64,000 nt of DNA. It comes from a virus. Its lineage: Duplodnaviria; Heunggongvirae; Uroviricota; Caudoviricetes. Below are positions 5,995-61,009 of this stretch, piece after piece. Location: the IMG/VR virus record IMGVR_UViG_2713896908_000007. One strand, 5' to 3'. A program made the translations under genes and the position numbers. The first letter of the stretch is position 1. Each line of letters opens with the position of its first letter. The notes below the pieces were generated by a model. That model saw nothing but the letters and a program-made list of their open reading frames with translations, made no database searches and was not told the origin of the DNA.

Positions 5995-6070
5995 TGGCGA
6001 TGGTGGGTGGATTCGAACCACCGACCAGTTAGTTAACAGCCAACTGCTCTAACCGCTGAGCTACACCATC
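5995..6070 (-). tRNA. tRNA-Asn (anticodon GUU)
   Basis: 76-nt cloverleaf GATGGTG...CTGTTAA...GGTTCGAATCC...CACCATC-G-CCA. Confidence 0.85.
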
Positions 6071-6730: not shown

Positions 6731-6758
6731 ATTACACTAATAAATTTATTAGAGCAAT
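6731..6758. promoter_or_regulatory. pair of overlapping, inverted P1 C1-repressor-type operators
   Basis: AAATTTATTAGAGCAAT (17/17 to the remembered consensus ATTGCTCTAATAAATTT, reverse orientation) overlapping ATTACACTAATAAATTT (15/17). Confidence 0.6.
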
Positions 6759-9700
6759 ATAGCAATAACGTCATGAGCTACACCACGAGTGTTCCCCTTA
6801 CAAGACACAGAACGTCTGGCAAAAAGAGGTTCCACTCTGAAGCCACTGTCTTGGTAAAGCTCCCTGATGTTTGGCGCACCACTATTAGTAATGAGGATCT
6901 TTGCACCTCGGCGATGAGCATCCATTAGCAGAGATACCAGGCGTTTTTGCTCTTCAAACTTAAAGTCATGACCGGAATAGTTTGTAAACCCCTCTGTATT
7001 GGGGAGCGGTTCATACGGAGGATCGCAAAAGATGACATCTCCTTCTCCGGCAGCTTCAATCACCGCTGAAAAATCACCACATACAAACTCAGAACGCCCT
7101 TCAGCACCAAGGAAGGCTTCCATCTCCTGTAATGGGAAATACGGAGTTTTATACTTCCCATAACCAACATTAAACTCACCGGCCTGGTTGTAACGCGTCA
7201 ATCCGTTAAAACAATGTCGGTTCAGGAACAAAAACGCTGCTGCACGATGTAAATCATCATAGGCTTGTTTGTTAAACGCATTCCGTACTGCCAGGTATCC
7301 TTCCTGTGTGTTGTAGTCCTGGAAAAACCGATGCGCCAGAGTGATAAGTGAATGACCCTCACGTTGCAGAGTCCTGTAAAAGTTAATCAGGTCAGCATTC
7401 ACATCATTTAGCAGATTTTCTTGATATCCGGCATTTATGAAGACAGCTCCGCCACCAACGAAAGGCTCGATCAGGCGCTTTCCGTCAGGTAAATGCCTAA
7501 AGATTTGTTCAAGAACACCAAATTTTCCGCCGACCCATTTAAATATGGGACGGTCAAATTCTGCCGTTAGCTTAACTCTCCGTTCTGTTGCTTCATGATT
7601 TTTTGCCTGCTGATATGCAGCCTTAATAATCCGCTCACCAATCCATCGCATTACTGGTATCGCCATGCTATTGCCGATCGCTTTGTAACGCGGTCCGTCA
7701 GCTGCAAGCATCGCGGCCTCTTCTTCGCTTAAATCTGGATAGTGATTGCGAAGGTATGCCAGTTCATCTGAAGTAACTTTTTTACGCTTTTCCGTCGGGA
7801 TCAACGTATGCCCATCAGGAAAACCTTGCAGTCTTTCACATTCGACAGGGGTAAGACGGCGGACAGCTACTGCTGCGTTTCCTACGTCATAGCAAACGGC
7901 TGTTGTATTTTTGGCCATTAAAGATGGTGAAGTATTCTTAGTTGCAGCATGTTGTGTACCGCTCATACGCTCAGGAAAAGCCAATGTAACAAGATGCTCA
8001 TGGCTTTCTTGCTCACGTGCCCGCAATGTACCATGCCCTTCTGACCAAAAACCTGCTCCTGTGCTGCTAAAAACTGCAAGGTCAGTGGCATCTTTAAAGT
8101 CTCTCGCCTTTACTGTCGATGCGGTTTCATCGCCAATATATTCCCCAAATGCCGCCATCCTGAAAGCGTTTACGGCTTTCGTCGATTTCATACCGGGGGT
8201 AATGTCAGCGTGTAGGCATGGATTTAGGCTTTCGCCACTGATTGCAGCGCCATTTGCAATAATGGCGGAAGCGATTTCCTTCTTTTTTCGGCTCGGCGCA
8301 ATATTCCGGCGCACGCCTTCGAACTCAAAAAGTACCGTTGCGGGATCGAGGTCTGTTCGAGCACTTGCGACAACAAACACGCGTCGGCGTCGTTGTGCCA
8401 CTCCGAAGTATTGGGCATCAAGGATTCTCCAGGCCACCTTTCGCTGCGGTCCATAAATACAACCACACTGCGGCCACTTTGGAGCATGGCAACCGGTTTT
8501 GCCATCCCACCGCCAGAACGCGTTACTTTTTCCTGATTCAGGTCGATCACCTGGTTCAAATGGCGCATCTTCTCCAGCCAATCCGGCAAGGAAACATCCG
8601 AAGGCGTTATCTGCCGATGACAAGACTCCTGGGACATTTTCCCAGACGATAACGGCTGGTTTGAGAAATGACTCAGCCCGTTTGTCGTCAATTGCATTTG
8701 CAAGCTCCACATACTTTAAAGTTAGCGCGCCACGCTCATCATCAAGCCCACCACGTAATCCCGCGATACTGAATGCCTGACAGTTATGGACCACCGCACC
8801 ATTGAGAATATAGGAATGATCACCTTCGACTTCTATGTTGTATACAGTATCTAGGCCTACCGATTTAAACTCTTTGACTGTTCGTAAAAGCATTCCATGA
8901 GCCAATCTTGATTTACGTGACAATTTCTGCGGGCAGATTGTTACCTGATAATAATTCCGTTGATTTACCACGCGATCCTCGATCACTTTTTTGGGCTCAA
9001 CTTCAATAAAGCTGACCGAAGAAACATAACCACAAGTCTGTGACACCCCCGCAACGCCCCAAGCAAGCGCAGGACTAACACTATTAATTCTAAATCCCGC
9101 TTTACCACTTGGTGTCCCATCAGTATCAAGATAGCCTTGTAAAAACACATGACGCAATGGATGCGACATCACCCATGCAGGGATACGCTTAGCATGGCTT
9201 AACTCGCCAAAATGTTCATTAAGCCAATTGGCATAACACGTATCATTCAAGGTTACTTTGATGCTCCCTCGGATTTCTCTTGCCACGGAAAATATGTTTT
9301 CTGGTATGCGACAATGAAACTTTCTCAATTTCTGGCAATTTATGCCAAAAACAACCGCCTTCTTAGATTTACCTCTCCATCTCCTAATATATCCATCGCC
9401 AACATAAGCGCCCGCAAGATACATAGCCTGTTCTTCAGACAAGAACCGAGAACAAATATCTGGAGATGCAATATTGAAATTAGTTAGAGCGCACCATTGA
9501 TATCCTGGCATATCACATGCTGCTCGCCATTCCGGTTCAGACAACAACTCTCTCTTAAAATATGTGCCATTTTTCCGGGTGTTTTGGGCTTTCCACCGAA
9601 CAGCCAGGAAGGGATGGTCATTGGTTGTTCTTATACCTAAAGGCTGCCCAACGGCATTAAGTAACCCCGTATTAGCTATTTTTGAACCAACTCTTTTTAC

Positions 9701-10036
9701 TTGTTGTAACCGCCCGAGATGACTGACTACGTAATCGCCAGGGCAAACATCTTCTATTGGTTTATAACCATTTTTACAAAGAACCATATGCCCCGCGGTA
9801 AAACATGGTGTTCCCCCGACGAGCACGTCAGGGGATTCGATTTCCCCAGCCAGGACTTTTTTGGCAAGTTTAGTCATGTCGTCAAGGTTGGCGACATGGG
9901 GCCAGCGGTGCGCAAGAACGGCCGATGGAAAAGACTCGATTTCAGCAAACCACGCCGGACGCATACCCAACGGTTCCCAGGCAATACTCGCGGCTTCAAT
10001 TCCACTGCAAACAGATCCATAGCACAGCTCTTTCAC
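6749..10036 (-). CDS. dmt: bifunctional DNA methyltransferase (N-terminal C5-cytosine MTase, C-terminal Dam-like N6-adenine MTase) with an intein
   Basis: C5 motifs ([30 protein letters not shown]) then Dam motifs ([22 protein letters not shown]); GTG start overlaps the hrdC stop. Confidence 0.85.
8783..9805 (-). other. intein (341 aa) with LAGLIDADG homing-endonuclease motifs, inserted before the catalytic Cys of C5-MTase motif IV
   Basis: GGTP|CFTAGHMVL...TNDHPF...[10 protein letters not shown]...[10 protein letters not shown]...[13 protein letters not shown]|CQAFSIAG; excision restores [12 protein letters not shown]. Confidence 0.8.
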
Positions 10037-40816: not shown

Positions 40817-43800
40817 ATGAATGACGTTACAGTTGTTACATCGGTCACTTACCCATCACCCGAGTCGTTGGCTCTGGTGGCTGATGTGCAATACCACGAA
40901 CCATATCTGTCAGCCGCGCTAAACCGAAAATTCAGGGGAATTGTTGCCCCTGGATTTTATGCCGGTTTCTTGCCTAAGCCTGGTGGTGGGATGAACCTGT
41001 TAATCACCTCAGTGGATGGTGATAAAACTGCTGGCGCTGCGTCAGTGGATATTGGTGAATTCTACCAGGTAACTATTCAGCACCGTAAGGATATTTCTCT
41101 TGCACTTAGTGCAGGTAAGAAATATGCAATTGTGCTGAAGGGAAGATACCTCCTTGGAGAGGATACCTATCAGGTTAATACCGCGTCACATATTCATGCG
41201 GCTGAATTTATTGCCAGAATCTATACCGATTCATATCAGTTGGGAGATGGGGAGCTACTTGTTTGTACGGTAAATATCCCTGCTGGCGTATCTGCCATTA
41301 CCCAGGAGATGATTGATACATCTGAGCGTATCAACCGCACGATCGGCATTGAAATATCAGACTCTGTAACCAGCACCAGAAGTGATGTTGCGGCAAGTTC
41401 GCTGGCAGTTAAAAAAGCCTACGATCTGGCGAAAAGCAAGTATACGGCGCAGGATGCAAGCACAACGCAAAAGGGATTAGTTCAGCTCAGTAGCGAAACT
41501 AACAGCGACAGCGAAACAATGGCGGCTACCCCTAAAGCCGTTAAGTCTGTAAAAGATCTTGCTGATACTAAAGCGCCAATAGAAAGCCCGAATCTGACAG
41601 GGAAACCAGGTGCCCCGACTGCGGCCCCTGGTACAAACAGCAATCAGATCGCAAATACAGCATTTGTTCATGCCGCTATAAACGCGCTTATCAACGGCGC
41701 CCCAGGAACACTGGATACGCTGAAAGAAATTGCGGCCGCTATCAACAACGATCCGAAGTTCGGCACGACTATCAATAATGCGCTGAATCTTAAGGCTCCT
41801 TTAGCAAACCCTGCATTCACCGGAATACCTACCGCGCCTACAGCACCGCAGGGTACAAATAACACACAGATAGCAACGACTGCTTATGTTAGGGCGGCTA
41901 TTTCCGCATTGGTCGGTTCATCTCCTGAAGCTCTGGATACTCTGAATGAGTTAGCTGCGGCGCTTGGCAATGACCCGAACTTTGCGACAACCATGACCAA
42001 TGCACTGGCAGGGAAACAGCCTCTTGATGCAACCTTAACCGCGCTCGCTGCCCTTGCGACTGGTGCAAATAAACTGCCTTATTTCACCGGTAAGGATACG
42101 GTAGCGCAGACTGATTTAACGTCAGTCGGTCGCGATATTCTGGCTAAAACAAGCACACTGGCCGTTATCCAATACCTTGGTTTAAGAGAACTTGGCACAA
42201 GCGGTGAAAAGATTCCCCTGTTGAGCACGGCTAACACATGGAGTGCACGCCAGACTTTCAACGGCGGGATCACCGGGGCGCTGACAGGGAACGCCGACAC
42301 CGCTACAAGATTGCAGACGGCGAGAAAAATTAATGATGTTCTATTTGATGGTTCAAAGGATATCACTTTAACTGCCGAAAACTTAAAGCTTGAGCAAACA
42401 GTAGAATTAGCTGCTGGTGCTTTACAGAAAAAACAGAACGGCGCAGATATTCCAGATAAGGGTGCTTTCCTGAACAATATTAACGCGGTCAGTAAAACAG
42501 ATTTTGCTGCTAAGCGTGGGATGCGTTATGTGCGAGTTAACGCTCCGGCAGGTGTAACGCCCGGAAAATATTACCCTGTTGTTGTAAAACGTAACTCGGG
42601 TTCAACAAGTGAACTTGCATCAAGGGTAGTTATATCCACTAAATCTGTTGGTGGAGCAGATCCTATGAACAACTGCGAGTTCAGCGGATTTGTGATGCCT
42701 GGCGGCTGGACTGACAGAGGGCGTTATGCCTATGGAATGTTCTGGCAATATCACAACAATGAACGAGCAATTCATTCGATAATGATGAGTGCTAAGTCAG
42801 ATGATTTGCACTCTGTATTCTATGTTGATGGTGCTGCTTTCCCTGTCTTTGCATTTATTGAAGATGGCCTGTCAATATCCGCACCGGGTGCTGATCTCGT
42901 TGTTAATGATACGACCTATAAGTTTGGGGCAATAAACCCGGCGACAGAATGTGTCGCGGCTGACGTTATCCTTGATTTTAAAAGTGGGCGTGGTTTTTAT
43001 GAATCTCATTCGTTAATTGTTAACGATAACTTGTCGTGCAAAAAACTTTTCGCAACAGACGAAATTGTAGCGCGTGGTGGTAATCAGATTCGAATGATAG
43101 GCGGGGAATACGGTGCGTTATGGAGAAATGACGGCGCTAAAACTTACCTGCTGCTTACCAACAAAGGTGATGTTTATGGCGAGCATAATGCATTAAGACC
43201 GTTTGCTGTTGATAACGCAACTGGTGAACTGACTGTTGGAACCAAACTATCCGCAAGTCTGAACGGTAACGCATCGACAGCAACCAAGTTACAAAATGCG
43301 ATAAATATTAATGGCGTTAAATTTGATGGTTCCAGTGATATAAATATTAATACGTTAGTATCCCGAAACCGTGTTACAGCATTAAGTGGGAGCGCAAAGG
43401 GTACGCCAGGTATCCAAATGTATGAAGCGTACAACAATGGATATCCTTTTACTTATGGTAACGTTCTTCATCTTACTGGCGCAGCAGCAGTTGGCGAAGG
43501 AGAGTTATTTATTGGGTGGAGTGGGACCAGCGGCGCTCATGCTCCGGCATATATTCGCTCCCGACGAGATACCACAGATGCTAACTGGTCGCCGTGGGCG
43601 CAGCTTTACACGTCAGCTCATCCTCCGGCAGAGTTTTATCCAGTCGGTGCCCCAATTCCGTGGCCTTCTGATGTAGTACCTACAGGTTATGCTATTATGC
43701 AGGGGCAAACTTTTGATAAGTCCGCATACCCAAAACTTGCAGTGGCTTATCCATCTGGTGTTATCCCTGATATGCGTGGATGGACAATCAAGGGTAAACC

Positions 43801-44248
43801 CGCCAGTGGGCGTGCCGTATTGTCTCAGGAACAGGATGGCATCAAGTCGCACACCCACAGTGCCAGCGCATCAAATACTGACCTCGGTACTAAAACGACC
43901 AGCTCATTTGATTACGGGACAAAAACGGTCAGCACGTTTAACCACGGTACAAAAACGACAAACAATACAGGAGCGCATACGCATACTGTCGGTGGTCGTT
44001 ACGGTGGTGACTCCATCGGGGGTAAACAACGCGTACAGGTATCAGGAACCAACCAGGTGTCAAGCTCTGCCGGAGCACATGCCCATACTGTCGATATTGG
44101 TCAGCATAACCACACCGTAGGTATTGGTGCCCATGCGCACACTGTGGCATTGGGTGCGCACGGACATACCATCACGGTTAACGCTACTGGTAATGCGGAA
44201 AACACCGTAAAAAACATTGCATATAACTATATTGTGAGGCTTGCATGA
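40817..44248 (+). CDS. S: tail fibre protein S with C-terminal HxH repeats
   Basis: ATG at 40817 after AAGGA; repeated collar motifs; C-terminal GAHTHT/GAHAHT/GAHGHT repeats of the T4 gp37-type metal-binding tip. Confidence 0.75.
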
Positions 44249-45114
44249 TTAAGTTAATTCTTTCAGCGCCAGTACATGAAATGGCTGAAGCATTTAAGCG
44301 GGTATTCGCAAATGCAGATAATGTGGATGTTGTAGAAAAAACATTTGAAGCAATCCCGGAATTTGACTGCATGGTCAGTGCGGCAAACAGTTTCGGGCTA
44401 ATGGATGGCGGCGTTGACGCTGCCATTACTGCATTCTTTGGTACTCAGTTACAGACACGTGTTCAGAATCATATTCTTCGTGAATATCTTGGTGAGCAGC
44501 CTGTAGGCACTGCATTTGTTATTGAAACGGGGGATAACAACCATCCCTGGCTGGTACATGCGCCAACAATGCGCGTTCCGCTGACCATTGACGGAACAGA
44601 CGCTGTATATAACGCCACGTGGGCTGCTTTACTTGCCATCTTTCAGCACAATAAAAATGCAACGACAGACAGGAAAATAAAGACGGTGGTATTCCCTGCA
44701 ATGGGGGCCGGATGTGGTCAGGTGCCGTTTGAAAGTGTTGCCCGGCAGATGAAGCAGGCATGGGATAACTTTAATAAAAAAACAGAAGCAATTAACTGGG
44801 AATACGCACACTCCCGCCAGTTGGCAGTATTTAATACATGCGCGTACTGCCCGGGTACTCCTGTTTGTCGTTATGCGGATATTAAATATATTGGACTTGG
44901 CGATTACCGGACGTATTGCTTACGGTCGGGGCAGGTATGCATTAATCCTGAACATCAGGTTGATGACGTGCTGACTAATAATCGTTCTCGCCCGGGGGCG
45001 CATATGCATCAGATTAATCCGGTAAAATCCGTAGGTAATATTGCCATTGGCGCACACAGCCACGGAAGGAATATCACCATTGGTGCTCATTCCCATACCC
45101 CACATAAACAATAA
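44245..45114 (+). CDS. macro-domain protein with C-terminal fibre-tip HxH repeats
   Basis: [18 protein letters not shown] and [14 protein letters not shown] match macro-domain signatures; C-terminal [17 protein letters not shown]; ATGA overlap with S. Confidence 0.75.
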
Positions 45115-45138
45115 TTCTTTCTCTGATTAGAGGTGAAA

Positions 45139-45717
45139 ATGACTTTCAGAATGAGTGCTGAAGCACAAACCATTCGCGTATTTAATTATCTCGATGGTAC
45201 AAATGAATTTATTGGAGAAAGTGATGCCTATATTCCACCACATACAGGGCTTCCGGCAAACAGCACAGATATTGCTCCTCCTAAGATTCCAGCTGGTTTT
45301 GCCGCTATATTCGACACAACCCGAAACTTATGGAATTTAATAGAGGACCATAGAGGAAAAACTGTTTATCACACTGAAACAGGTGACGCTAAAACTATAT
45401 TTAAATTAGGCGCTTTGCCTGAGGATGTTACGTGCATTCCTCCTGATGATGAGTATCAGAAGTGGAATGGAAATCAATGGGTTACAGACGATGAGGCGAA
45501 GCATCAAGCTCAGATAACCTATGCAAACTCAAAGAAAAATGAGTTGTTAAAGCACGCAAGCGTAGAGATAGCGATCTTACAAGATGCTGTTGATTTATGT
45601 ATTGCAACAGATGAAGAGAAAGTTTTATTAAATGAATGGAAAAAATACAGAGTGCTTGTAAATAGGTTAAATGAAGATGACATCATTCAAATGAAAGTCC
45701 CTGAAATACCAGTTTGA
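45139..45717 (+). CDS. U: tail fibre assembly chaperone
   Basis: Tfa-like protein (FAAIFDTT...W, DEEKVLLNEWKKYRVLVNRL); immediately follows the fibre locus. Confidence 0.7.
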   Translation: MTFRMSAEAQTIRVFNYLDGTNEFIGESDAYIPPHTGLPANSTDIAPPKIPAGFAAIFDTTRNLWNLIEDHRGKTVYHTETGDAKTIFKLGALPEDVTCIPPDDEYQKWNGNQWVTDDEAKHQAQITYANSKKNELLKHASVEIAILQDAVDLCIATDEEKVLLNEWKKYRVLVNRLNEDDIIQMKVPEIPV

Positions 45718-45771
45718 TTTATATATTAATAAGCCACTGTTGACAGGACTGTTTTACAGTGGTTTGTTTTA

Positions 45772-46920
45772 TTATCCAAACCAATTTTCTAGAACATTTT
45801 CAAATTTATGGGTAACTTGCCACCATAAATAGTTCTCTAATACATATTTCTTTCCGTTATTTGCAATTTGTTCTAATTTTTCGGAGTGTAATGTTTCATA
45901 TATATCACTAGCTAAACTTTCTGGCAACATTGGTTCATTTATATGAAATCCTGTATGGTTATTTTTTACAAATTCAACCATTCCACCTCGAGTGCTAACT
46001 AAAACGGGTTTTCCTGCCCCCATAGCTTCTATAGCAACCATGCAGAACGGTTCTTGAAACTGAGATGGGATTACAACTAGATCGGCTATAGGATAGTAAC
46101 GGTACATATCATCTGGTTTTACCCCGCCAACAAGATGACAACGCGAACCAATAGTTCCAGCAAGTTCCCTTACTTGTTTTTGATATGCAGCTTTTTCTCC
46201 TTTATCTTTATTATTGTAGTCACCAACAACTACAAGTTCTATATTGTCACATGATTTTATCAATTTTTTAAACGCTTGTAATAGTAAAACAGTCCCTTTT
46301 TCAGGGGAGATCCTTCCCGCATAAAAGATAACTTTTTTCTCAGAGGGAATGCCTAAATCTTGTTTTGTTAGCGGGGGTAGCCCTTTATCTAGATTGTGTG
46401 GTTCTGTACCATTAGGAACTATACAAATTTCAGCGTCAGGAAGATGTTTTTCATAAAAATCCTTTAAATACTGACTTGGAACAAGCATTTTCACATTGCT
46501 ATCTAGCCCTTTCGGTGTAAAGGCATTATGCATATGCATTATCATTTTTGCGTCAGGAGCTTTCTCTCTAATTTGACGATAAAGTTTCATGCTGTTATGA
46601 ACAATAATAATGCTATCGTTTGTGATATTGAAATCTTTAGCAATGTTTAACACTCGTTGTGAATATGGAATAGGATCTATTCTGCTCCATTTTTGAAATA
46701 TCCGTTTATAAAGACGGCTAAACCCTATTCTATGGATAGAGCATCGCTCATTAACAATATCTTTTTCTGAGAAACCATCCTCTCGAATGCATGCTATACG
46801 ATTTGGTATTCTTGTTCTCTTTGCGACTTGATATATCCAAGTTTCAACAGCTGCTGCGCCACGAGGTGGTATTGAAAATATTGGTGTAACTGTAAATATT
46901 AATTTGTCAATCATGAGCAA
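45772..46920 (-). CDS. GT-B fold glycosyltransferase (GT4-like)
   Basis: 382 aa; C-terminal EPFCMVAIEAMGAGKPVL fits the GT4 E-x7-E region; AT-rich; overlaps the upstream acetyltransferase gene. Confidence 0.7.
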   Translation of the reverse strand: MLMIDKLIFTVTPIFSIPPRGAAAVETWIYQVAKRTRIPNRIACIREDGFSEKDIVNERCSIHRIGFSRLYKRIFQKWSRIDPIPYSQRVLNIAKDFNITNDSIIIVHNSMKLYRQIREKAPDAKMIMHMHNAFTPKGLDSNVKMLVPSQYLKDFYEKHLPDAEICIVPNGTEPHNLDKGLPPLTKQDLGIPSEKKVIFYAGRISPEKGTVLLLQAFKKLIKSCDNIELVVVGDYNNKDKGEKAAYQKQVRELAGTIGSRCHLVGGVKPDDMYRYYPIADLVVIPSQFQEPFCMVAIEAMGAGKPVLVSTRGGMVEFVKNNHTGFHINEPMLPESLASDIYETLHSEKLEQIANNGKKYVLENYLWWQVTHKFENVLENWFG

Positions 46921-47458
46921 CTATCCTCTTATAATCTTTTTCCTTTAAATGTTTTTTTGGGGTTGCGGGAGAGCCCGCATACATTGTATTAGCAGGAACA
47001 TCAGTATTTACAACGCTATTTGCAGCTATAACACTATTGTCTCCTATTTTTACACCTGGTAGCACAGTTGTATTTGCCCCAATCCAAACATTACGGCCTA
47101 TTTTTATTGGAGCGCAAATTGTTTCTTTGGGACGTTTGCTTGGTGTTAGTGGATGCGTGACAGTTGTTAATACAACGTTGGGGCCAATGGCAGAGTTACA
47201 TCCAATATCTATTGTTTTTGCATCGAGAAAAACACAATTTGCGTTAATGAAGACCTTTTTATCAATAATTATATTGCCATTCTCAAAATAAAATGGAGCT
47301 GTTATTGTTGAGTCTTCACTTACTTTAACTCCTGTTTTTTTTAATGTGATTAATTTTTTTCTTTTTGAGATCAAGGTATAATTAAATATATGTCTTGCTT
47401 TCTTTGCTTTCTTTTTTTGAAAAATTATATAGAAATAATATGTTAGCAAATCAAACAT
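46907..47458 (-). CDS. hexapeptide-repeat acetyltransferase
   Basis: Tandem left-handed beta-helix hexapeptides (IGRNVWIGANTTV, IGDNSVIAANSVV); AT-rich. Confidence 0.7.
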   Translation of the reverse strand: MFDLLTYYFYIIFQKKKAKKARHIFNYTLISKRKKLITLKKTGVKVSEDSTITAPFYFENGNIIIDKKVFINANCVFLDAKTIDIGCNSAIGPNVVLTTVTHPLTPSKRPKETICAPIKIGRNVWIGANTTVLPGVKIGDNSVIAANSVVNTDVPANTMYAGSPATPKKHLKEKDYKRIVAHD

Positions 47459-47482
47459 TGTTGTTTTACTTCCATTTAAAAT

Positions 47483-47812
47483 TTAACTATCAAATGTGGC
47501 TCCTATTTCTCGCATTTTGTTAAGTATGATGTTTATTTCATTGCTACCGAGAGAAGTTTGGGCAGCTATGAAAAAAAGTATGTGCAATGACATAGATCTG
47601 TTATTTTCTTTGTTTATATATTTTCTCCACTGGCTATCGCTGCTGACCCCGGCTAGTTCTGCCATTTGATTCCCTGTATACCCAAGCGTTTCTTTGAATT
47701 GACGCAAATCTTGTGATTTGGGGGGGGTGTAGTTGTTTATTAACCTCATATTAAACCCATTATTGGTAAGCTTTCGTTGGTGTAATGGTAGCACCAATGG
47801 GGCTGCTGTCAA
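47483..47812 (-). CDS. small HTH-like protein at the head of the GT/acetyltransferase cassette
   Basis: ORF with a probable HTH (LGYTGNQMAELAGVSSDSQW); start uncertain (track TTG, or internal ATG at 47749). Confidence 0.35.
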   Translation of the reverse strand: MTAAPLVLPLHQRKLTNNGFNMRLINNYTPPKSQDLRQFKETLGYTGNQMAELAGVSSDSQWRKYINKENNRSMSLHILFFIAAQTSLGSNEINIILNKMREIGATFDS

Positions 47813-47889
47813 GCGTCTTTTCTTTATAAATATAGGGAGCCATCAAAATCTGACATTAATTATCTATCGAAATATTTTGAATGACTGGT

Positions 47890-47910
47890 GAGAAGTTACT
47901 TTGCATACCA
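47890..47910 (+). promoter_or_regulatory. candidate late promoter upstream of lydA
   Basis: GAGAAGTTACTTTGCATACCA; the AGTTACTTTGCATA core recurs upstream of other late genes. Confidence 0.35.
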
Positions 47911-47939
47911 TTACCTCCTGACAACGTAGGAGGGAACTT

Positions 47940-48269
47940 GTGCTTGACACACAGGAATTAGCTCCAGTTGCTATTGCGCTCCTGCTTTCAGTAATTGGTG
48001 GGATAGGCACGTTCCTGATGGATGTCCGAGACGGTCGCCAGTCTGGCAATTTGTTGGGATTGGTTACGGAGATCTTTGTTGCAGTGACAGCTGGCGCGGT
48101 GGCGTACCTATTGGGGCAACACGAGGGCTGGGAGTTATCAATTACGTACTTAATGGTAACGATAGCCAGCAATAACGGTCATGAGGTGATTTCAGGGATG
48201 AAACGAGTGAATATCGATAGCATTCTGAATGTTCTTACAAGTTTGGTGAAAAAGGGAGGCGGGAAATGA
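47940..48269 (+). CDS. lydA: holin
   Basis: 109 aa with hydrophobic helices and basic C-terminus; GTG start after AGGAGG; coupled to the next gene. Confidence 0.65.
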   Translation: MLDTQELAPVAIALLLSVIGGIGTFLMDVRDGRQSGNLLGLVTEIFVAVTAGAVAYLLGQHEGWELSITYLMVTIASNNGHEVISGMKRVNIDSILNVLTSLVKKGGGK

Positions 48270-51602: not shown

Positions 51603-51663
51603 GCTGTAGTTTTCGAAGATTCTCACAAGTTCATTTCGCGTAGGTATTTATTTAACCATTAAA

Positions 51664-51701
51664 GCCGAATGCGGCGGGCACACCACATTCGGCAATTTTT
51701 T
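51664..51701. terminator. rho-independent terminator between convergent ddrA-like gene and gldA
   Basis: GCCGAATG ... CATTCGGC hairpin followed by AATTTTTT. Confidence 0.65.
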
Positions 51702-51735
51702 GAAAACTATCAATGAATTAAATAATCAGAGGGGC

Positions 51736-52839
51736 TTATTCCCACTCTTGCAGGAAACGCTGACCGTACTGGTCGGCTACCAGCAGTGCAGCATAAACCT
51801 GATCTGGCGTTGCGCCGCCAGGCATGTTGTGGATGGTTTCACCTTCTGCACATGCCGCTTCTGCGACAATCCGCATTTTCGCCGGGATATCTTCTTTAAT
51901 ATCCAGTTGTGCCAGGGTAATTGGCAGGCCGACAGCATGGCACAGCGCAGCTACGGTTTCGATTTCTTCAACTGGTGCGTTTTCCAGAACCAGTTGCGTC
52001 AGCGTACCGAATGCCACTTTCTCACCGTGATAATAGTGATGCGCATCCGGAATGGCCGTCAGGCCATTGTGCACCGCGTGCGCCGCCGCCAGGCCGCCGC
52101 TTTCAAAGCCCACGCCGCTCAAATAGGTGTTAGCTTCAATCACACGTTCCAGCGCCGGAGTCACCACATGCTGTTCAGCGGCAAGCATCGCTTTTTCGCC
52201 TTCTTCCAGCAGGGTGTTGTAGCACAGTTCAGCCAGAGCCAGTGCTGCCTGAGTACATTTACCGCCCGCCATCGTGGTTGCGCCGCTGCGGGAACAGGCA
52301 CGTGCTTCAAACCAGGTTGCCAACGCATCGCCAATACCCGCCGCTAACAGACGTGCAGGTGCGCCAGCAACAATTTTGGTATCCACAATGACGCGTTCCG
52401 GGTTGTTTGGCAGCATCAGATAACGTTCAAACTCACCATCATCGGTGTAGATAACGGAAAGGGCGCTGCAAGGTGCGTCGGTTGAGGCAATGGTTGGGGC
52501 AACTGCAACAGGAACGCCCATAAAGTGTGCCAGTGCTTTGGCTGTATCGAGGGTTTTACCTCCGCCGATTCCCAGAATTGCGCTACACTGAGCATTCTCT
52601 GCAATACCCCGCAGACGATCGATTTCATTTTGCGAACATTCACCGCCGAACGGGGCAATTTCTACCTCTATTCCAGCATCTTTAAAACTTTTCTCAATAT
52701 TAGTTTGAGCAAAACCTAACACAAATTTGTCACCTACCACCAACCAATGTTCTGCCAGCGGTTTCAGGTATTCACCCAGGCGATTAATGACATCTGCGCC
52801 TTGGATGTATTTACCCGGTGATTGAATGATGCGGTCCAT
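51736..52839 (-). CDS. gldA: glycerol dehydrogenase (iron-containing ADH family), host-type metabolic gene
   Basis: 367 aa; first ~190 residues match remembered E. coli GldA almost exactly, C-terminal half more diverged; own AAGGAG RBS. Confidence 0.9.
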
Positions 52840-52986
52840 AATTGCTCCTTTAGAGATGAGTTATGCTAAATGTTTTGTTATTCCCGGATGACCTTCTGTA
52901 TATATCTTAAGTCAACATTATAAGTTGACGCCAATATTCCGTAGAAGAGATGTTACTTCGCGAGCAGTATGACTCCATAGGTTTCT

Positions 52987-53005
52987 GAGACGTTACTTTG
53001 CATAT
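52987..53005 (+). promoter_or_regulatory. candidate late promoter
   Basis: GAGACGTTACTTTGCATAT, sharing the GTTACTTTGCATA core with the lydA upstream motif. Confidence 0.3.
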
Positions 53006-53142
53006 GATATTGCTGAGGCAAATACATTCAATGCCGCATTTTTGTGAGATTTTAAGCCAATCTACATCACCATTAGGTAAGAGTATCTTTTTTTGGTGGT
53101 GATGGCGCAATGTATCAGTGGACAGCATAAGGTGTAACAGGG

Positions 53143-54831
53143 ATGTGTTTGAACGATCATACAGTTATGGCCACCAGCAGCGGCTACATCGGTGTGGCAC
53201 CGTATACCCGCTTGCTATTACATCAGGCATCCGGCATCAAAGATATTATTCACCTGATCAGGCTGCTTTCCCGTACAGATCCCCAGGATGAACAGCTTGT
53301 TCAAGTGCTTGCGCATTTTGTCCGAATGCCTGTTGCCGACGTGAAAAAATGGTGCCGATTATTCGGTATCAGCAATTCGTTACTTCGCGGATTGTTAAAT
53401 CACGCATCCTCCCTTGGGCGCGACGGATTTGATGAGATAGCGCAGGCGATAAAAAACGGAGATATGCCACCAGCTATTGACTGGTTTTCCATTCGCCCAA
53501 CCAGGGTGAAAGCATTCCTTAGTGCGGCGCAATCAGCATCACCATTGGCAGAAATGGTTCAGAGGTTGTCGCTCATATTCACAGATCATACCGCGTTCGG
53601 TGATCTGGCTCTGGACGAGATGAAAGAAGCCTCCATTCAGTGGGCCGCTCAACAAAATGAGGTTAACTCAGACTTCTTGCCAGCATTCAGGAAGGCCGTT
53701 AGTAAAGCGGATGATGCCCGTGGAATTCTGAAGGCATTTAAGGCATTGCAAAGTCGGGTTAATAAACATGTCGGTGATATCGATGGGGTAACGGCGGAAG
53801 GCAGGGATATCCTTAAAGAGCACGGCATAACGCCAGAGTTTATTGATGAGATCAGGACGGATATGCAGCGTGAGGTCGTATCGTCCCTGCAAATTGTAGC
53901 CAGAGCGTTGGCGGATGCTAATCCGAAGAGTGCGGCCATTGTTAACCGGGTTATTGGTGATATTGAAGCATCGGAGGGCATGGGGGCGCTGAAACTCTTC
54001 CTTTCGCGAGCGTTTAATCCTAACGGCAATATTCTCCCTGGCATTATTGGTGAGGCTAAAAGGTATGTCAGTGAAGAAGAACTTGAGCAGCTTGACCAAC
54101 TACTTAAGCGATTCTCATATAACCCGCAGACACGCTGGCAAATGAATCAGCGAAGTATGGGTTCGGTCCACGAGAAAGTGTTATCTGCCATGAACAGTGC
54201 GATCGCAAACTCATCCGTATCTGAAGAAAAAGCTCTTGAGTGGGCCGACTCTTTTATCACGGAAGAAGTGGAAGAAGCCCGCGCTGGACAGAATGGTGGG
54301 ATAGACCTGCGCAAGGAACTTGCTGATATTTATCGCCTGACCGGCGGTAAAATTTCGACCCTATCAAAGATAATTCACCACCAGGGAAGGGCATATGCAA
54401 ATCTTAATGGTATTGTTGCTGTCAATTTGAACGATGAAAATGCAAGCGCACTGTGGCACGAGCTTGGTCATCATCTTGAGTACAGTAACCCTGGTCTGTT
54501 AGAGAAAGCCAGGTCATTCCTGAAGGCCAATGTTGAAGGGGATAAGCCATCTTTCGTTAATATCGGTGGGCGTGGTAAACCTGAATGGTGCTTCAGATCT
54601 CGATTGAGTAATATTTATATGGCGAAGGTATACCCGCCAGCCTCAGTGAGTAACTCCGGGAAAATTCGGCAGAAAGCACCGACTATTTCCAAAACGTCAG
54701 CAACGGAAGTATTCTCTATGGCTCTTCAGTTGTATCATGACAAAGAGGCCGCTGCCGCATCACTGATGAATGGTGACGGATTGCTGGAACTGTTATTAGG
54801 TGTGGCAAAGGAGCTAAATAATGCAGATTAA
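53143..54831 (+). CDS. large protein with C-terminal HExxH zincin-like motif
   Basis: 562 aa; WHELGHHLEYSNPG near the C-terminus; coupled to a small acidic ORF; occupies the region where P1 has ddrB. Confidence 0.45.
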   Translation: MCLNDHTVMATSSGYIGVAPYTRLLLHQASGIKDIIHLIRLLSRTDPQDEQLVQVLAHFVRMPVADVKKWCRLFGISNSLLRGLLNHASSLGRDGFDEIAQAIKNGDMPPAIDWFSIRPTRVKAFLSAAQSASPLAEMVQRLSLIFTDHTAFGDLALDEMKEASIQWAAQQNEVNSDFLPAFRKAVSKADDARGILKAFKALQSRVNKHVGDIDGVTAEGRDILKEHGITPEFIDEIRTDMQREVVSSLQIVARALADANPKSAAIVNRVIGDIEASEGMGALKLFLSRAFNPNGNILPGIIGEAKRYVSEEELEQLDQLLKRFSYNPQTRWQMNQRSMGSVHEKVLSAMNSAIANSSVSEEKALEWADSFITEEVEEARAGQNGGIDLRKELADIYRLTGGKISTLSKIIHHQGRAYANLNGIVAVNLNDENASALWHELGHHLEYSNPGLLEKARSFLKANVEGDKPSFVNIGGRGKPEWCFRSRLSNIYMAKVYPPASVSNSGKIRQKAPTISKTSATEVFSMALQLYHDKEAAAASLMNGDGLLELLLGVAKELNNAD

Positions 54832-59734: not shown

Positions 59735-61009
59735 TATATTGCCCTCCAGCTACCTTACCTAATGTCTGTTGGTATATTGGCTTTGATAACATTTTCGTCC
59801 GTGTATTCATTTATATACTCATTAGTTTCAATGTATTATATAGAACATGAAGCGTGCCTATAAATATCGATTCTATCCAACTCCCGAACAAACCGAGCTA
59901 TTAGCCCGGACTTTTGGGTGTGTGCGTTTTGTCTATAACAGCCTCCTTCGCTGGCGTACCGATGCATACTACGCACGCCATGAGAGGGTCGGCTATGCAC
60001 AAGCCAGCGCCAAATTAACGGCACTGAAAAAAGAACCAGAATTCGCTTGGCTGAATGACGTTTCCTGCGTCCCCCTCCAGCAGTCTCTGCGCCACCAACA
60101 AACGGCTTTTGCTAACTTTTTCGCCGGGCGTGCTGCATACCCAGTTTTTAAGAGCAAGCGGCATAAACAGGCCGCAGAACTAACTGCCAGCGCATTTAAA
60201 TACCGTGACGGCAAGCTGTACATGGCAAAGAGCAAAGAGCCGTTAGATGTTCGCTGGAGCCGTCCGTTGCCGTCTGCTCCATCCACTGTCACTATCACCA
60301 GGGATGCTGCCGGACGATATTTTGTATCCTGTCTCTGCGAGTTTGAGCCTGTATCACTGCCGATCACCGTTTCCACGGTCGGCATTGATATTGGTTTAAA
60401 AGATTTGTTCGTCACCGATACCGGTTTCAAAACTGGCAATCCTCGACACAACGCTAAATACGCGAAGCGATTAGCAGTGTTACAGCGCAGATTGAGCAAG
60501 AAACAAAAAGGCTCAAAGAACCGCGCCAAAGCACGTTTAAAGGTTGCCCGCCTCCACGCGAGAATAGTCGATTGTCGGATGGATAACCTGCATAAGTTGT
60601 CCCGCAAACTGATTAACGAAAACCAAGTTGTTTGCGTCGAATCCCTTAAAGTGAAAAACATGATCCGTAACCCGAAGCTGTCTAAAGCAATAGCTGACGC
60701 AGGCTGGAGCGAACTTGTACGCCAACTCCAGTACAAAGGAGAATGGGGTGGACGTAGCATTGTCGCTATCGACCAGTATTTCCCTTCTTCCAAACGTTGC
60801 AGCAGTTGCGGCTTCACCATGCAAAAAATGCCTCTTAATATTCGTAAATGGCACTGCCCGGAATGTGGCGCAGAGCATGATCGTGATATTAACGCGGCCC
60901 GTAATATAAAAGCTGCCGGGCTGGCAGTGTTAGCCCTTGGAGAGTCTGTAATTCCTAAGCCGCTTCATGTGGTTTAGGTCGGACTCTGTGAATTGGGAAT
61001 GTTTGCCGT
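59735..61009 (+). mobile_element. solo TnpB element (IS200/IS605 family, no tnpA), filling the gap between two structural genes
   Basis: Single tnpB ORF plus about 110 bp left and 30 bp right flanks; element ends not defined. Confidence 0.55.
59847..60977 (+). CDS. tnpB: TnpB, RuvC-like RNA-guided nuclease
   Basis: Hallmark N-terminus MKRAYKYRFYPTPEQ; RuvC motifs (GIDIGLKD, ...E..., HDRDINAARNI); zinc finger CSSCG...CPECG. Confidence 0.85.
   Translation: MKRAYKYRFYPTPEQTELLARTFGCVRFVYNSLLRWRTDAYYARHERVGYAQASAKLTALKKEPEFAWLNDVSCVPLQQSLRHQQTAFANFFAGRAAYPVFKSKRHKQAAELTASAFKYRDGKLYMAKSKEPLDVRWSRPLPSAPSTVTITRDAAGRYFVSCLCEFEPVSLPITVSTVGIDIGLKDLFVTDTGFKTGNPRHNAKYAKRLAVLQRRLSKKQKGSKNRAKARLKVARLHARIVDCRMDNLHKLSRKLINENQVVCVESLKVKNMIRNPKLSKAIADAGWSELVRQLQYKGEWGGRSIVAIDQYFPSSKRCSSCGFTMQKMPLNIRKWHCPECGAEHDRDINAARNIKAAGLAVLALGESVIPKPLHVV

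Follow-up and report, generated by a model that had tools for sequence, protein, structure and literature searches.

The 64,000-nucleotide stretch of IMG/VR virus record IMGVR_UViG_2713896908_000007 (the window, always meant at its full length) belongs to a P1-like phage-plasmid. Between the tail-fiber genes and lydA, it carries a minus-strand operon of three genes that encode a GT4-type glycosyltransferase (GT), a hexapeptide acetyltransferase, and a small helix-turn-helix (HTH) protein. Window positions 40000 to 64000 were ~100% identical to pEA16-1_1 of Escherichia albertii (NZ_CP117651.1; 99.4 kb), a P1-like phage-plasmid that served as the closest complete plasmid for comparison. The genes follow one another as R (40371 to 40805), S (40817 to 44248), a macro-domain open reading frame (ORF; 44245 to 45114), and a Caudo_TAP chaperone gene (45139 to 45717); next come the minus-strand genes for the GT, the acetyltransferase, and the HTH protein, and then lydA, lydB, hdf, darA, and ddrA. 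In P1, the corresponding slot holds S, U, U', Sv', cin, lydC, LPdar, and lydA.

A first-pass annotation of the same DNA had described a minus-strand cassette of an HTH-like ORF, a hexapeptide acetyltransferase, and a GT4-like glycosyltransferase, and its coordinates and Pfam families held. The GT ORF (45772 to 46920) matched Glycos_transf_1 with 128 bits, the acetyltransferase gene (46907 to 47458) matched Hexapep with 54 bits, and the HTH ORF (47483 to 47812) matched HTH_31 weakly (16.9 bits; cutoff, 27). Two start codons were corrected. The GT start was moved to the ATG at 46914, which gives a protein of 380 amino acids (aa) encoded at 45772 to 46914. The HTH start was moved to the ATG at 47749, which gives a protein of 88 aa at the head of the operon (47483 to 47749); all 20 aligned homologs begin with MRLI. 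The TTG at 47812, previously taken as the HTH start, is part of the TTGACA -35 hexamer of a promoter-like site. This sigma-70-like promoter candidate (47785 to 47812, minus strand) consists of TTGACA, a 16-nucleotide (nt) spacer, and TG-TACCAT, with 10 of 12 consensus matches and an extended -10 TG; it is a consensus match only, and the number of promoter-like sites in the region equals that expected from shuffled sequences. The acetyltransferase stop and the GT start overlap by 8 nt. In the 54-nt gap between the convergent chaperone and GT genes, direct folding revealed a hairpin (45728 to 45768; -21.5 kcal/mol; z of -3.7 relative to shuffles) that is likely a bidirectional terminator; a simple terminator scan found none.

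The cassette is AT-rich, as had been noted, with 35.1% GC (35.3, 32.8, and 38.2% for the GT, acetyltransferase, and HTH genes, respectively) compared with a window median of 47.2%, and only 0.6% of same-size segments are equally low. The variable part of waa loci is typically low in GC as well (PMC8715443). No transmembrane (TM) segment was detected in any of the three proteins (maximum Kyte-Doolittle score over 19 residues, 1.1 to 1.3), which suggests that they work in the cytoplasm or on the inner side of the membrane. PADLOC gave no defense-system match for them.

The GT belongs to the WaaK/WaaD family of lipopolysaccharide (LPS) outer-core glycosyltransferases. It matched the NCBIfam model NF012028 (LPS N-acetylglucosaminyltransferase, WaaK/RfaK) over positions 1 to 379 of 380 with 657.9 bits, above the cutoff of 618; members encoded in waa clusters scored 712 to 766 bits. 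Across the 25 aligned members, the GT4 EX7E motif (E288 and E296) did not vary. When viral contigs and one genome from each species were scanned, 33 loci with relatives of the GT were obtained. Every relative with 63% identity or less (54 to 63%) was encoded beside waaL in a chromosomal waa cluster, and each of those with at least 67% identity was encoded beside a phage tail-fiber assembly gene, with one exception, a Salmonella arizonae islet in which the GT relative follows a homolog of the same HTH gene. The waa-cluster relatives include Shigella flexneri waaD, where published deletion primers (PMC3184986) match locus L017 at positions 6004 and 7111. The window gene itself is not in a waa locus beside waaL; its neighbors are a phage Tfa gene and lydA.

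The phage-borne GTs formed a single clade, sister to the WaaD-type clade, in a neighbor-joining tree (constructed without bootstrapping). They are carried by five or more backbones, which comprise P1-like plasmids, a 49.5-kb P2-like phage-plasmid (pEA32_4), two P2-like myovirus contigs, and an integrase-adjacent prophage end. The closest known enzymes are WaaK (E. coli R2 and Salmonella) and WaaD (E. coli R3 and Shigella), which add a terminal alpha-linked sugar to the outer core. WaaK adds the terminal alpha-1,2 N-acetylglucosamine (GlcNAc) of the R2 core, which is required for recognition by WaaL (PMC13293308). The window GT resembles these enzymes in its full-length match to the family model, its 54 to 63% identity to them, its EX7E motif, and its predicted soluble cytoplasmic nature. 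It differs from them in that it is encoded on a phage beside fiber genes, falls in a separate clade (at least 67% identity within), and is paired with an acetyltransferase and a putative XRE-type regulator. Literature searches for a phage-borne WaaK or a P1-like glycosyltransferase cassette returned nothing specific.

The second enzyme is a LacA/Maa-like left-handed beta-helix (LbH) hexapeptide sugar O-acetyltransferase, with hexapeptide repeats and full-length similarity to the family. Residues 17 to 175 aligned with galactoside O-acetyltransferase LacA (1KQA; E value of 1.3e-27) and also with maltose O-acetyltransferases, and the aligned histidine is kept (THP aligned to GHP). Its scores of 103 and 102 bits were far below the equivalog cutoffs for Maa and LacA (314 and 347, respectively), and it is therefore a member of the family and not an ortholog of either. 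The LbH acetyltransferases WbbJ and WcaF gave 70 to 71 bits.

The protein at the head of the operon matched phrog_20491 (E value of 4.6e-25) and had 102 close homologs in Enterobacterales, which are ~87 aa long and carry the NCBI name XRE family. An AlphaFold2 model consisted of five helices (pLDDT of 85.9), and its top Foldseek matches in the PDB were all of the XRE type (CapH, Aca1, SinR, and the C-proteins of restriction-modification [R-M] systems), with probabilities of up to 0.98. Because the E values were weak (0.04 to 0.1), the predicted XRE fold is assigned with moderate confidence. The protein resembles small XRE controllers (R-M C-proteins, Aca1, and CapH) in size (~70 to 90 aa), in its modeled five-helix HTH, and in its place at the head of a mobile operon. 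These structural matches are weak, and the window protein is a putative DNA binder.

The same HTH gene heads a variety of cassettes. In Citrobacter, Serratia, and Yersinia, the same-strand genes that follow it encode a WaaZ-like protein, an Acyl_transf_3 protein, or an Acyl_transf_3 protein plus a SASA protein, and in Pluralibacter no cargo follows; a convergent fiber or Tfa gene comes next in four of these five sets. Relatives of the HTH gene were present in 254 viral contigs, and we tabulated cargo and neighbors for 80 of these loci, which are not independent lineages. Behind the HTH gene, 32 loci carried Acyl_transf_3, 11 carried a hexapeptide acetyltransferase, 15 carried other or unknown genes, and 22 carried none. 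A WaaK-like GT was also present in 4 of the 11 hexapeptide acetyltransferase loci, all four being P1-like elements. The first convergent gene encoded a Gly_rich_2 fiber in 24 loci, a Caudo_TAP protein in 19, and a Peptidase_S74 fiber in 6. Of the 43 loci whose cargo includes an acyl-, acetyl-, or glycosyltransferase, 38 are faced by a fiber or Tfa gene. Cargo type and fiber type covaried, which we do not take as a sign of functional coupling, given that the loci are not independent lineages. In 48 of the 80 loci, the HTH gene was preceded, ~37 nt upstream, by a 57-aa ORF with an N-terminal coiled coil and a C-terminal TM helix. This ORF was also present in the S. arizonae islet (L047:3290-3463) and was absent from the window and the P1-like copies. 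At two viral loci (L059 and L077), a second type of hexapeptide acetyltransferase stands behind the HTH gene, and the first convergent gene belongs to the HtrL_YibB family, which is otherwise found beside the waa locus.

The window operon has the three features by which we delimit these HTH-led, fiber-adjacent cassettes, namely, a phrog_20491 head, same-strand sugar-modifying cargo, and a convergent fiber or Tfa gene. It is thus an instance of a widespread type of prophage cassette, set apart by its rare cargo. The shared HTH head provides a simple sequence handle for locating receptor-modifying prophage cargo.

We consider it probable that the three genes form a lysogenic-conversion operon, in which the putative XRE-type regulator, the O-acetyltransferase, and the WaaK/WaaD-family GT4 enzyme alter the lipid A-core and hence phage receptors. 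The full-length pass of the WaaK model, the EX7E motif, the waaL-adjacent chromosomal relatives, the phage clade, purifying selection, the lack of TM segments, the operon structure (promoter-like site, translational coupling, and terminator hairpin), the LPS and O-antigen enzymes of the sister cassettes, and the mobility of the module support this proposal. While the element is a plasmid prophage, the operon's own promoter would drive its transcription under the control of the small HTH protein. The two soluble enzymes would modify the lipid A-core before export, on the cytoplasmic side of the inner membrane. There, the GT would add an alpha-linked glucose (Glc) or GlcNAc onto the distal outer-core glucose, and the acetyltransferase would O-acetylate a sugar of the core or one nearby. 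Phages that bind the core, perhaps this phage among them, would then adsorb differently to the altered outer core, and ligation of the O-antigen may be affected as well. The gene identities, family membership, synteny, purifying selection, and lack of a Cin system are observations, and lysogenic expression, the sugar donor and its acceptor, and the resulting phenotype are predictions from sequence.

The first-pass annotation had left two targets open, a surface polysaccharide or a phage component. The former is the most likely, given that the GT falls in the WaaK/WaaD family and that the cargo of the HTH cassettes consists mostly of sugar acyl- and acetyltransferases. That the enzymes instead glycosylate or acetylate a tail fiber, another virion protein, or DNA would be in keeping with the adjacency of the cassette to fiber genes and with a Pfam GT4-conflict match of 48.8 bits. 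However, the operon runs opposite to the late operon that includes the fiber genes and has its own promoter-like site and putative regulator. The LPS-core family match is full length, at 658 bits versus 49 for GT4-conflict, and the nearest nonphage relatives of the GT are encoded in waa clusters. Additionally, the PADLOC search was negative, and the Acyl_transf_3 membrane enzymes of the sister cassettes are of a kind that typically acetylates O-antigen. We regard a phage component or DNA as a very improbable target and rejected it on the basis of orientation and family evidence.

Alteration of the host surface by a prophage is familiar, and it is the enzymes used here that are unusual. Prophage alteration of LPS is known mainly for the O-antigen, through membrane-bound Gtr and Oac enzymes. 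Like GtrABC of P22, SfV, and CPS-53 and the Acyl_transf_3 proteins Oac/OafA (Sf6), the cassette consists of temperate-phage genes. Those systems are expressed in lysogens, where they change LPS chemically and prevent adsorption; they resemble morons and are often located at the ends of prophages, and Acyl_transf_3 genes also occur in sister cassettes with the same HTH gene. In contrast, the Gtr and Oac enzymes are embedded in the membrane and modify the O-antigen from the periplasmic side, whereas both enzymes here lack TM segments and members of the GT family modify the core from the cytoplasmic side. Neither GtrA, GtrB, or GtrC nor Acyl_transf_3 was found in the cassette, and the Pfam families differ. 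As proposed, then, the cassette works like Gtr or Oac conversion yet lies outside those families. If the proposal is correct, conversion would, through phage-borne outer-core transferases that form a clade and act in the cytoplasm, also reach the core, the receptor of many coliphages (P1, T4, and others). This would matter for predicting the host range of phages, for phage therapy, and for transduction by P1 among natural isolates.

The operon lies in a larger segment of foreign DNA. Residues 1 to 518 of P1 S were 93% identical to the window S, whose P1-like constant part extends to position ~42370. P1 DNA homology restarts at 47881, just upstream of LPdar, which is kept (~47895 to 47913) and followed by lydA (right junction, 47881 to 48269, plus strand). 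Because P1 identity reaches into S and resumes at 47881, the event was a replacement of ~5.5 kb (window ~42371 to 47880) that begins inside S. The first-pass annotation had placed a cassette between U and lydA, in the slot of cin and the invertible C-segment; comparison with P1 bears out the slot, and the event is larger than was described. Its "U" likewise occupies the chaperone slot before the cassette, whereas the protein is of the lambda Tfa type and shares only 36% identity with P1 U across 108 aa. By this comparison, the replacement removed Sv, U, U', Sv', cin, and lydC and brought in a fiber tip of the T4 gp37/lambda Stf type, the macro-domain ORF, the lambda Tfa-type chaperone, and the three-gene operon. 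The segment lydC-cin-Sv'-U'-U-S is one of eight hypervariable regions of P1-like plasmids (PMC9603915). The case illustrates how a P1-like element can lose fiber switching through a single recombination inside S.

We searched for remnants of the inversion system by using P1 Cin, U', Sv', and LydC as tblastn queries. P1 Cin gave no match (E value of ≤0.01) in the window or in the whole of NZ_CP117651.1, so that no serine invertase of this system was found in either. LydC matched only lydA (31%), and lydC is thus gone as well. Neither the window nor the closest complete plasmid contains a second cix site or an inverted fiber copy, and no long inverted repeat and no second fiber tip or chaperone was found in the window. 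What remains is a solitary cixR site inside S (42165 to 42191, plus strand), with 27 of 27 bases identical to the P1 cixR region; it was the sole match in the window, with 0 expected by chance, and no pair of inverted cix sites flanks a duplicated Sv/U. This perfectly kept site could still serve an invertase supplied in trans. In comparison with the Cin C-segment of P1 and P7 (also Mu Gin and e14 Pin), the window shares the genomic slot, the constant part of S, and an intact cixR; unlike it, the window has no recombinase, one cix site, a single non-P1 tip and chaperone, and no lydC. The earlier statement that there is neither a recombinase nor an inverted second tip and chaperone pair therefore stands, and with no cin, one cix site, and one fiber tip, a fixed fiber specificity is a fair inference. 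Among complete E. coli genomes, cin-like DNA gave 424 plasmid matches versus 465 for lydAB, which indicates that most P1-like plasmids retain an invertase.

The incoming fiber genes are all on the plus strand. The last ~204 aa of S (~43634 to 44245), at the end of a foreign distal part, matched the structure of the T4 gp37 receptor-binding tip (2XGF; E value of 2.9e-77). The macro-domain ORF (Pfam Macro, 70 bits; phrog_2613) overlaps the S stop codon with its start (ATGA), and its C terminus carries HxH repeats like those of the gp37 fiber needle and weakly matches the C terminus of S. A macro ORF between fiber and chaperone genes is also present in Gifsy-1, SEN4/5, phage Chuche, and pEA32_4. 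The chaperone matched Caudo_TAP with 111 bits. The entire stretch from the tip to the acetyltransferase recurs in pEA32_4, a non-P1 phage-plasmid, with 84% nucleotide identity; the encoded proteins were 83% (tip), 92% (macro), 87% (Tfa), 92% (GT), and 67% (acetyltransferase) identical to those of the window.

Region 3 of the P1-like phage JL22 (PMC9603915) is similar in having a gp37-type tip (74%), a Tfa (63%), and a convergent hexapeptide acetyltransferase gene directly downstream of tfa. Unlike the window, JL22 keeps cin, lydC, and a second fiber set, has neither the HTH gene nor the GT gene, and has an acetyltransferase of a different subtype. That gene, annotated as the serine acetyltransferase gene sacF (L040:3860-4432), encodes a hexapeptide acetyltransferase that is 62% identical to the second HTH-associated type; it is convergent with tfa and lies inside an intact C-segment. 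Because JL22 keeps cin and the C-segment with a related tip, Tfa, and acetyltransferase, cargo gain and cin loss are separate events. The idea that the cassette is a functional stand-in for cin was rejected, as JL22 has related cargo yet keeps cin.

More speculatively, enterobacterial prophages may share a plug-in platform, in which an XRE controller, often after the 57-aa membrane protein, is convergent with fiber genes and followed by interchangeable receptor-modifying enzymes. In the window, the phage-specific WaaK/WaaD clade would cap the outermost glucose of the outer core, which is the classical receptor on LPS for both P1 and T4. The clade and the gp37-type tip would have spread together among P1-like and P2-like phage-plasmids, as a matched pair that serves to "bind and then mask." We regard this wider scheme as possible and hold it only tentatively.

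Alternatively, the cassette might serve the host, with phage exclusion as an incidental effect. LPS or another envelope glycan (an O-antigen unit, enterobacterial common antigen [ECA], or colanic acid) would then be modified for benefits such as resistance to serum or bile, escape from immunity, or a change in how O-antigen is ligated. A second WaaK-like enzyme could alter O-antigen attachment, given the need of WaaL for the WaaK GlcNAc (PMC13293308), the acetyltransferase scores with WbbJ/WcaF-type enzymes, and the element carries other host-directed cargo (Ail/Lom and gldA). However, related cassettes consistently adjoin fiber or Tfa genes across unrelated backbones, and the GT and the fiber tip move together, both of which point to adsorption, and we consider host benefit as the main role unlikely.

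Several observations weigh against conversion of the core as proposed above. The donor sugar is ambiguous between Glc and GlcNAc: WaaK uses UDP-GlcNAc, and for WaaD one source makes an association with GlcNAc (PMC3184986). The NCBI label on one truncated copy of this GT gene is glucosyltransferase. WaaD, in conflict with the source above, is also said to have been identified as a glucosyltransferase in work from 2004. Because of the inconsistent WaaD sources and the NCBI label, we left the donor between the two sugars. The acceptor may differ from that of WaaK, as E. albertii already has a chromosomal WaaK homolog (54% identity; waaZ-waaK-waaL in the type strain). The window-type acetyltransferase is the sole cargo at three other loci and need not act on the GT product. 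Tips of the gp37/Stf type can use OmpC as well as LPS, and the tip here may bind OmpC and not LPS, which makes masking of the phage's own receptor uncertain. The dN/dS ratio of the HTH gene relative to a close relative was ~1.2, from very few changes. Signs of possible decay complete this list. The cassette was present in 14 PLSDB plasmids (E. albertii, E. coli, and E. fergusonii), in 2 of which (e.g., pEA22_2, L133:1415-2580) an IS5 element (ISKpn26) lies between the acetyltransferase and GT genes, and in NZ_CP117651.1, a 1-nt deletion in a T5 run (window position 46196) frameshifts the GT gene.

The insertions and the frameshift in the closest complete record would also be expected if the cassette were a hitchhiker or were decaying and at present served no function in this element, as would its rarity: only 10 of the ~465 lydAB-bearing plasmids among complete E. 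coli genomes (~2%) carried it. Such a status is nevertheless improbable. All three ORFs, including the GT copy, are intact in the window, the catalytic motifs are kept, and purifying selection is strong, with dN/dS values of 0.066 for the GT (relative to pEA32_4) and 0.14 for the acetyltransferase. Moreover, the frameshift falls within a homopolymer and may reflect an error in sequencing.

Other genes in the window also distinguish the element. A Dmt-like double methyltransferase ORF (6749 to 10036, minus strand; 1,095 aa) has Hint_2 and LAGLIDADG_3 matches, which suggests an intein inserted in the C5-methylase part. A gldA glycerol dehydrogenase gene (51736 to 52839, minus strand) follows ddrA in an inserted region (51603 to 53184), and because of this insertion ddrB is truncated, with only residues 448 to 995 of P1 DdrB remaining (53185 to 54828). 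A second AT-rich patch (30000 to 32000; ~36.5% GC) follows an antirepressor-like gene and contains two ORFs (30844 to 31179 and 31154 to 31966) with hydrophobic N termini and no Pfam match. Further cargo and mobile genes encode an Ail/Lom outer-membrane protein (25007 to 25522), an rve-type insertion sequence (IS) transposase (27754 to 28881), and a TnpB protein of the IS605 OrfB type (59847 to 60977).

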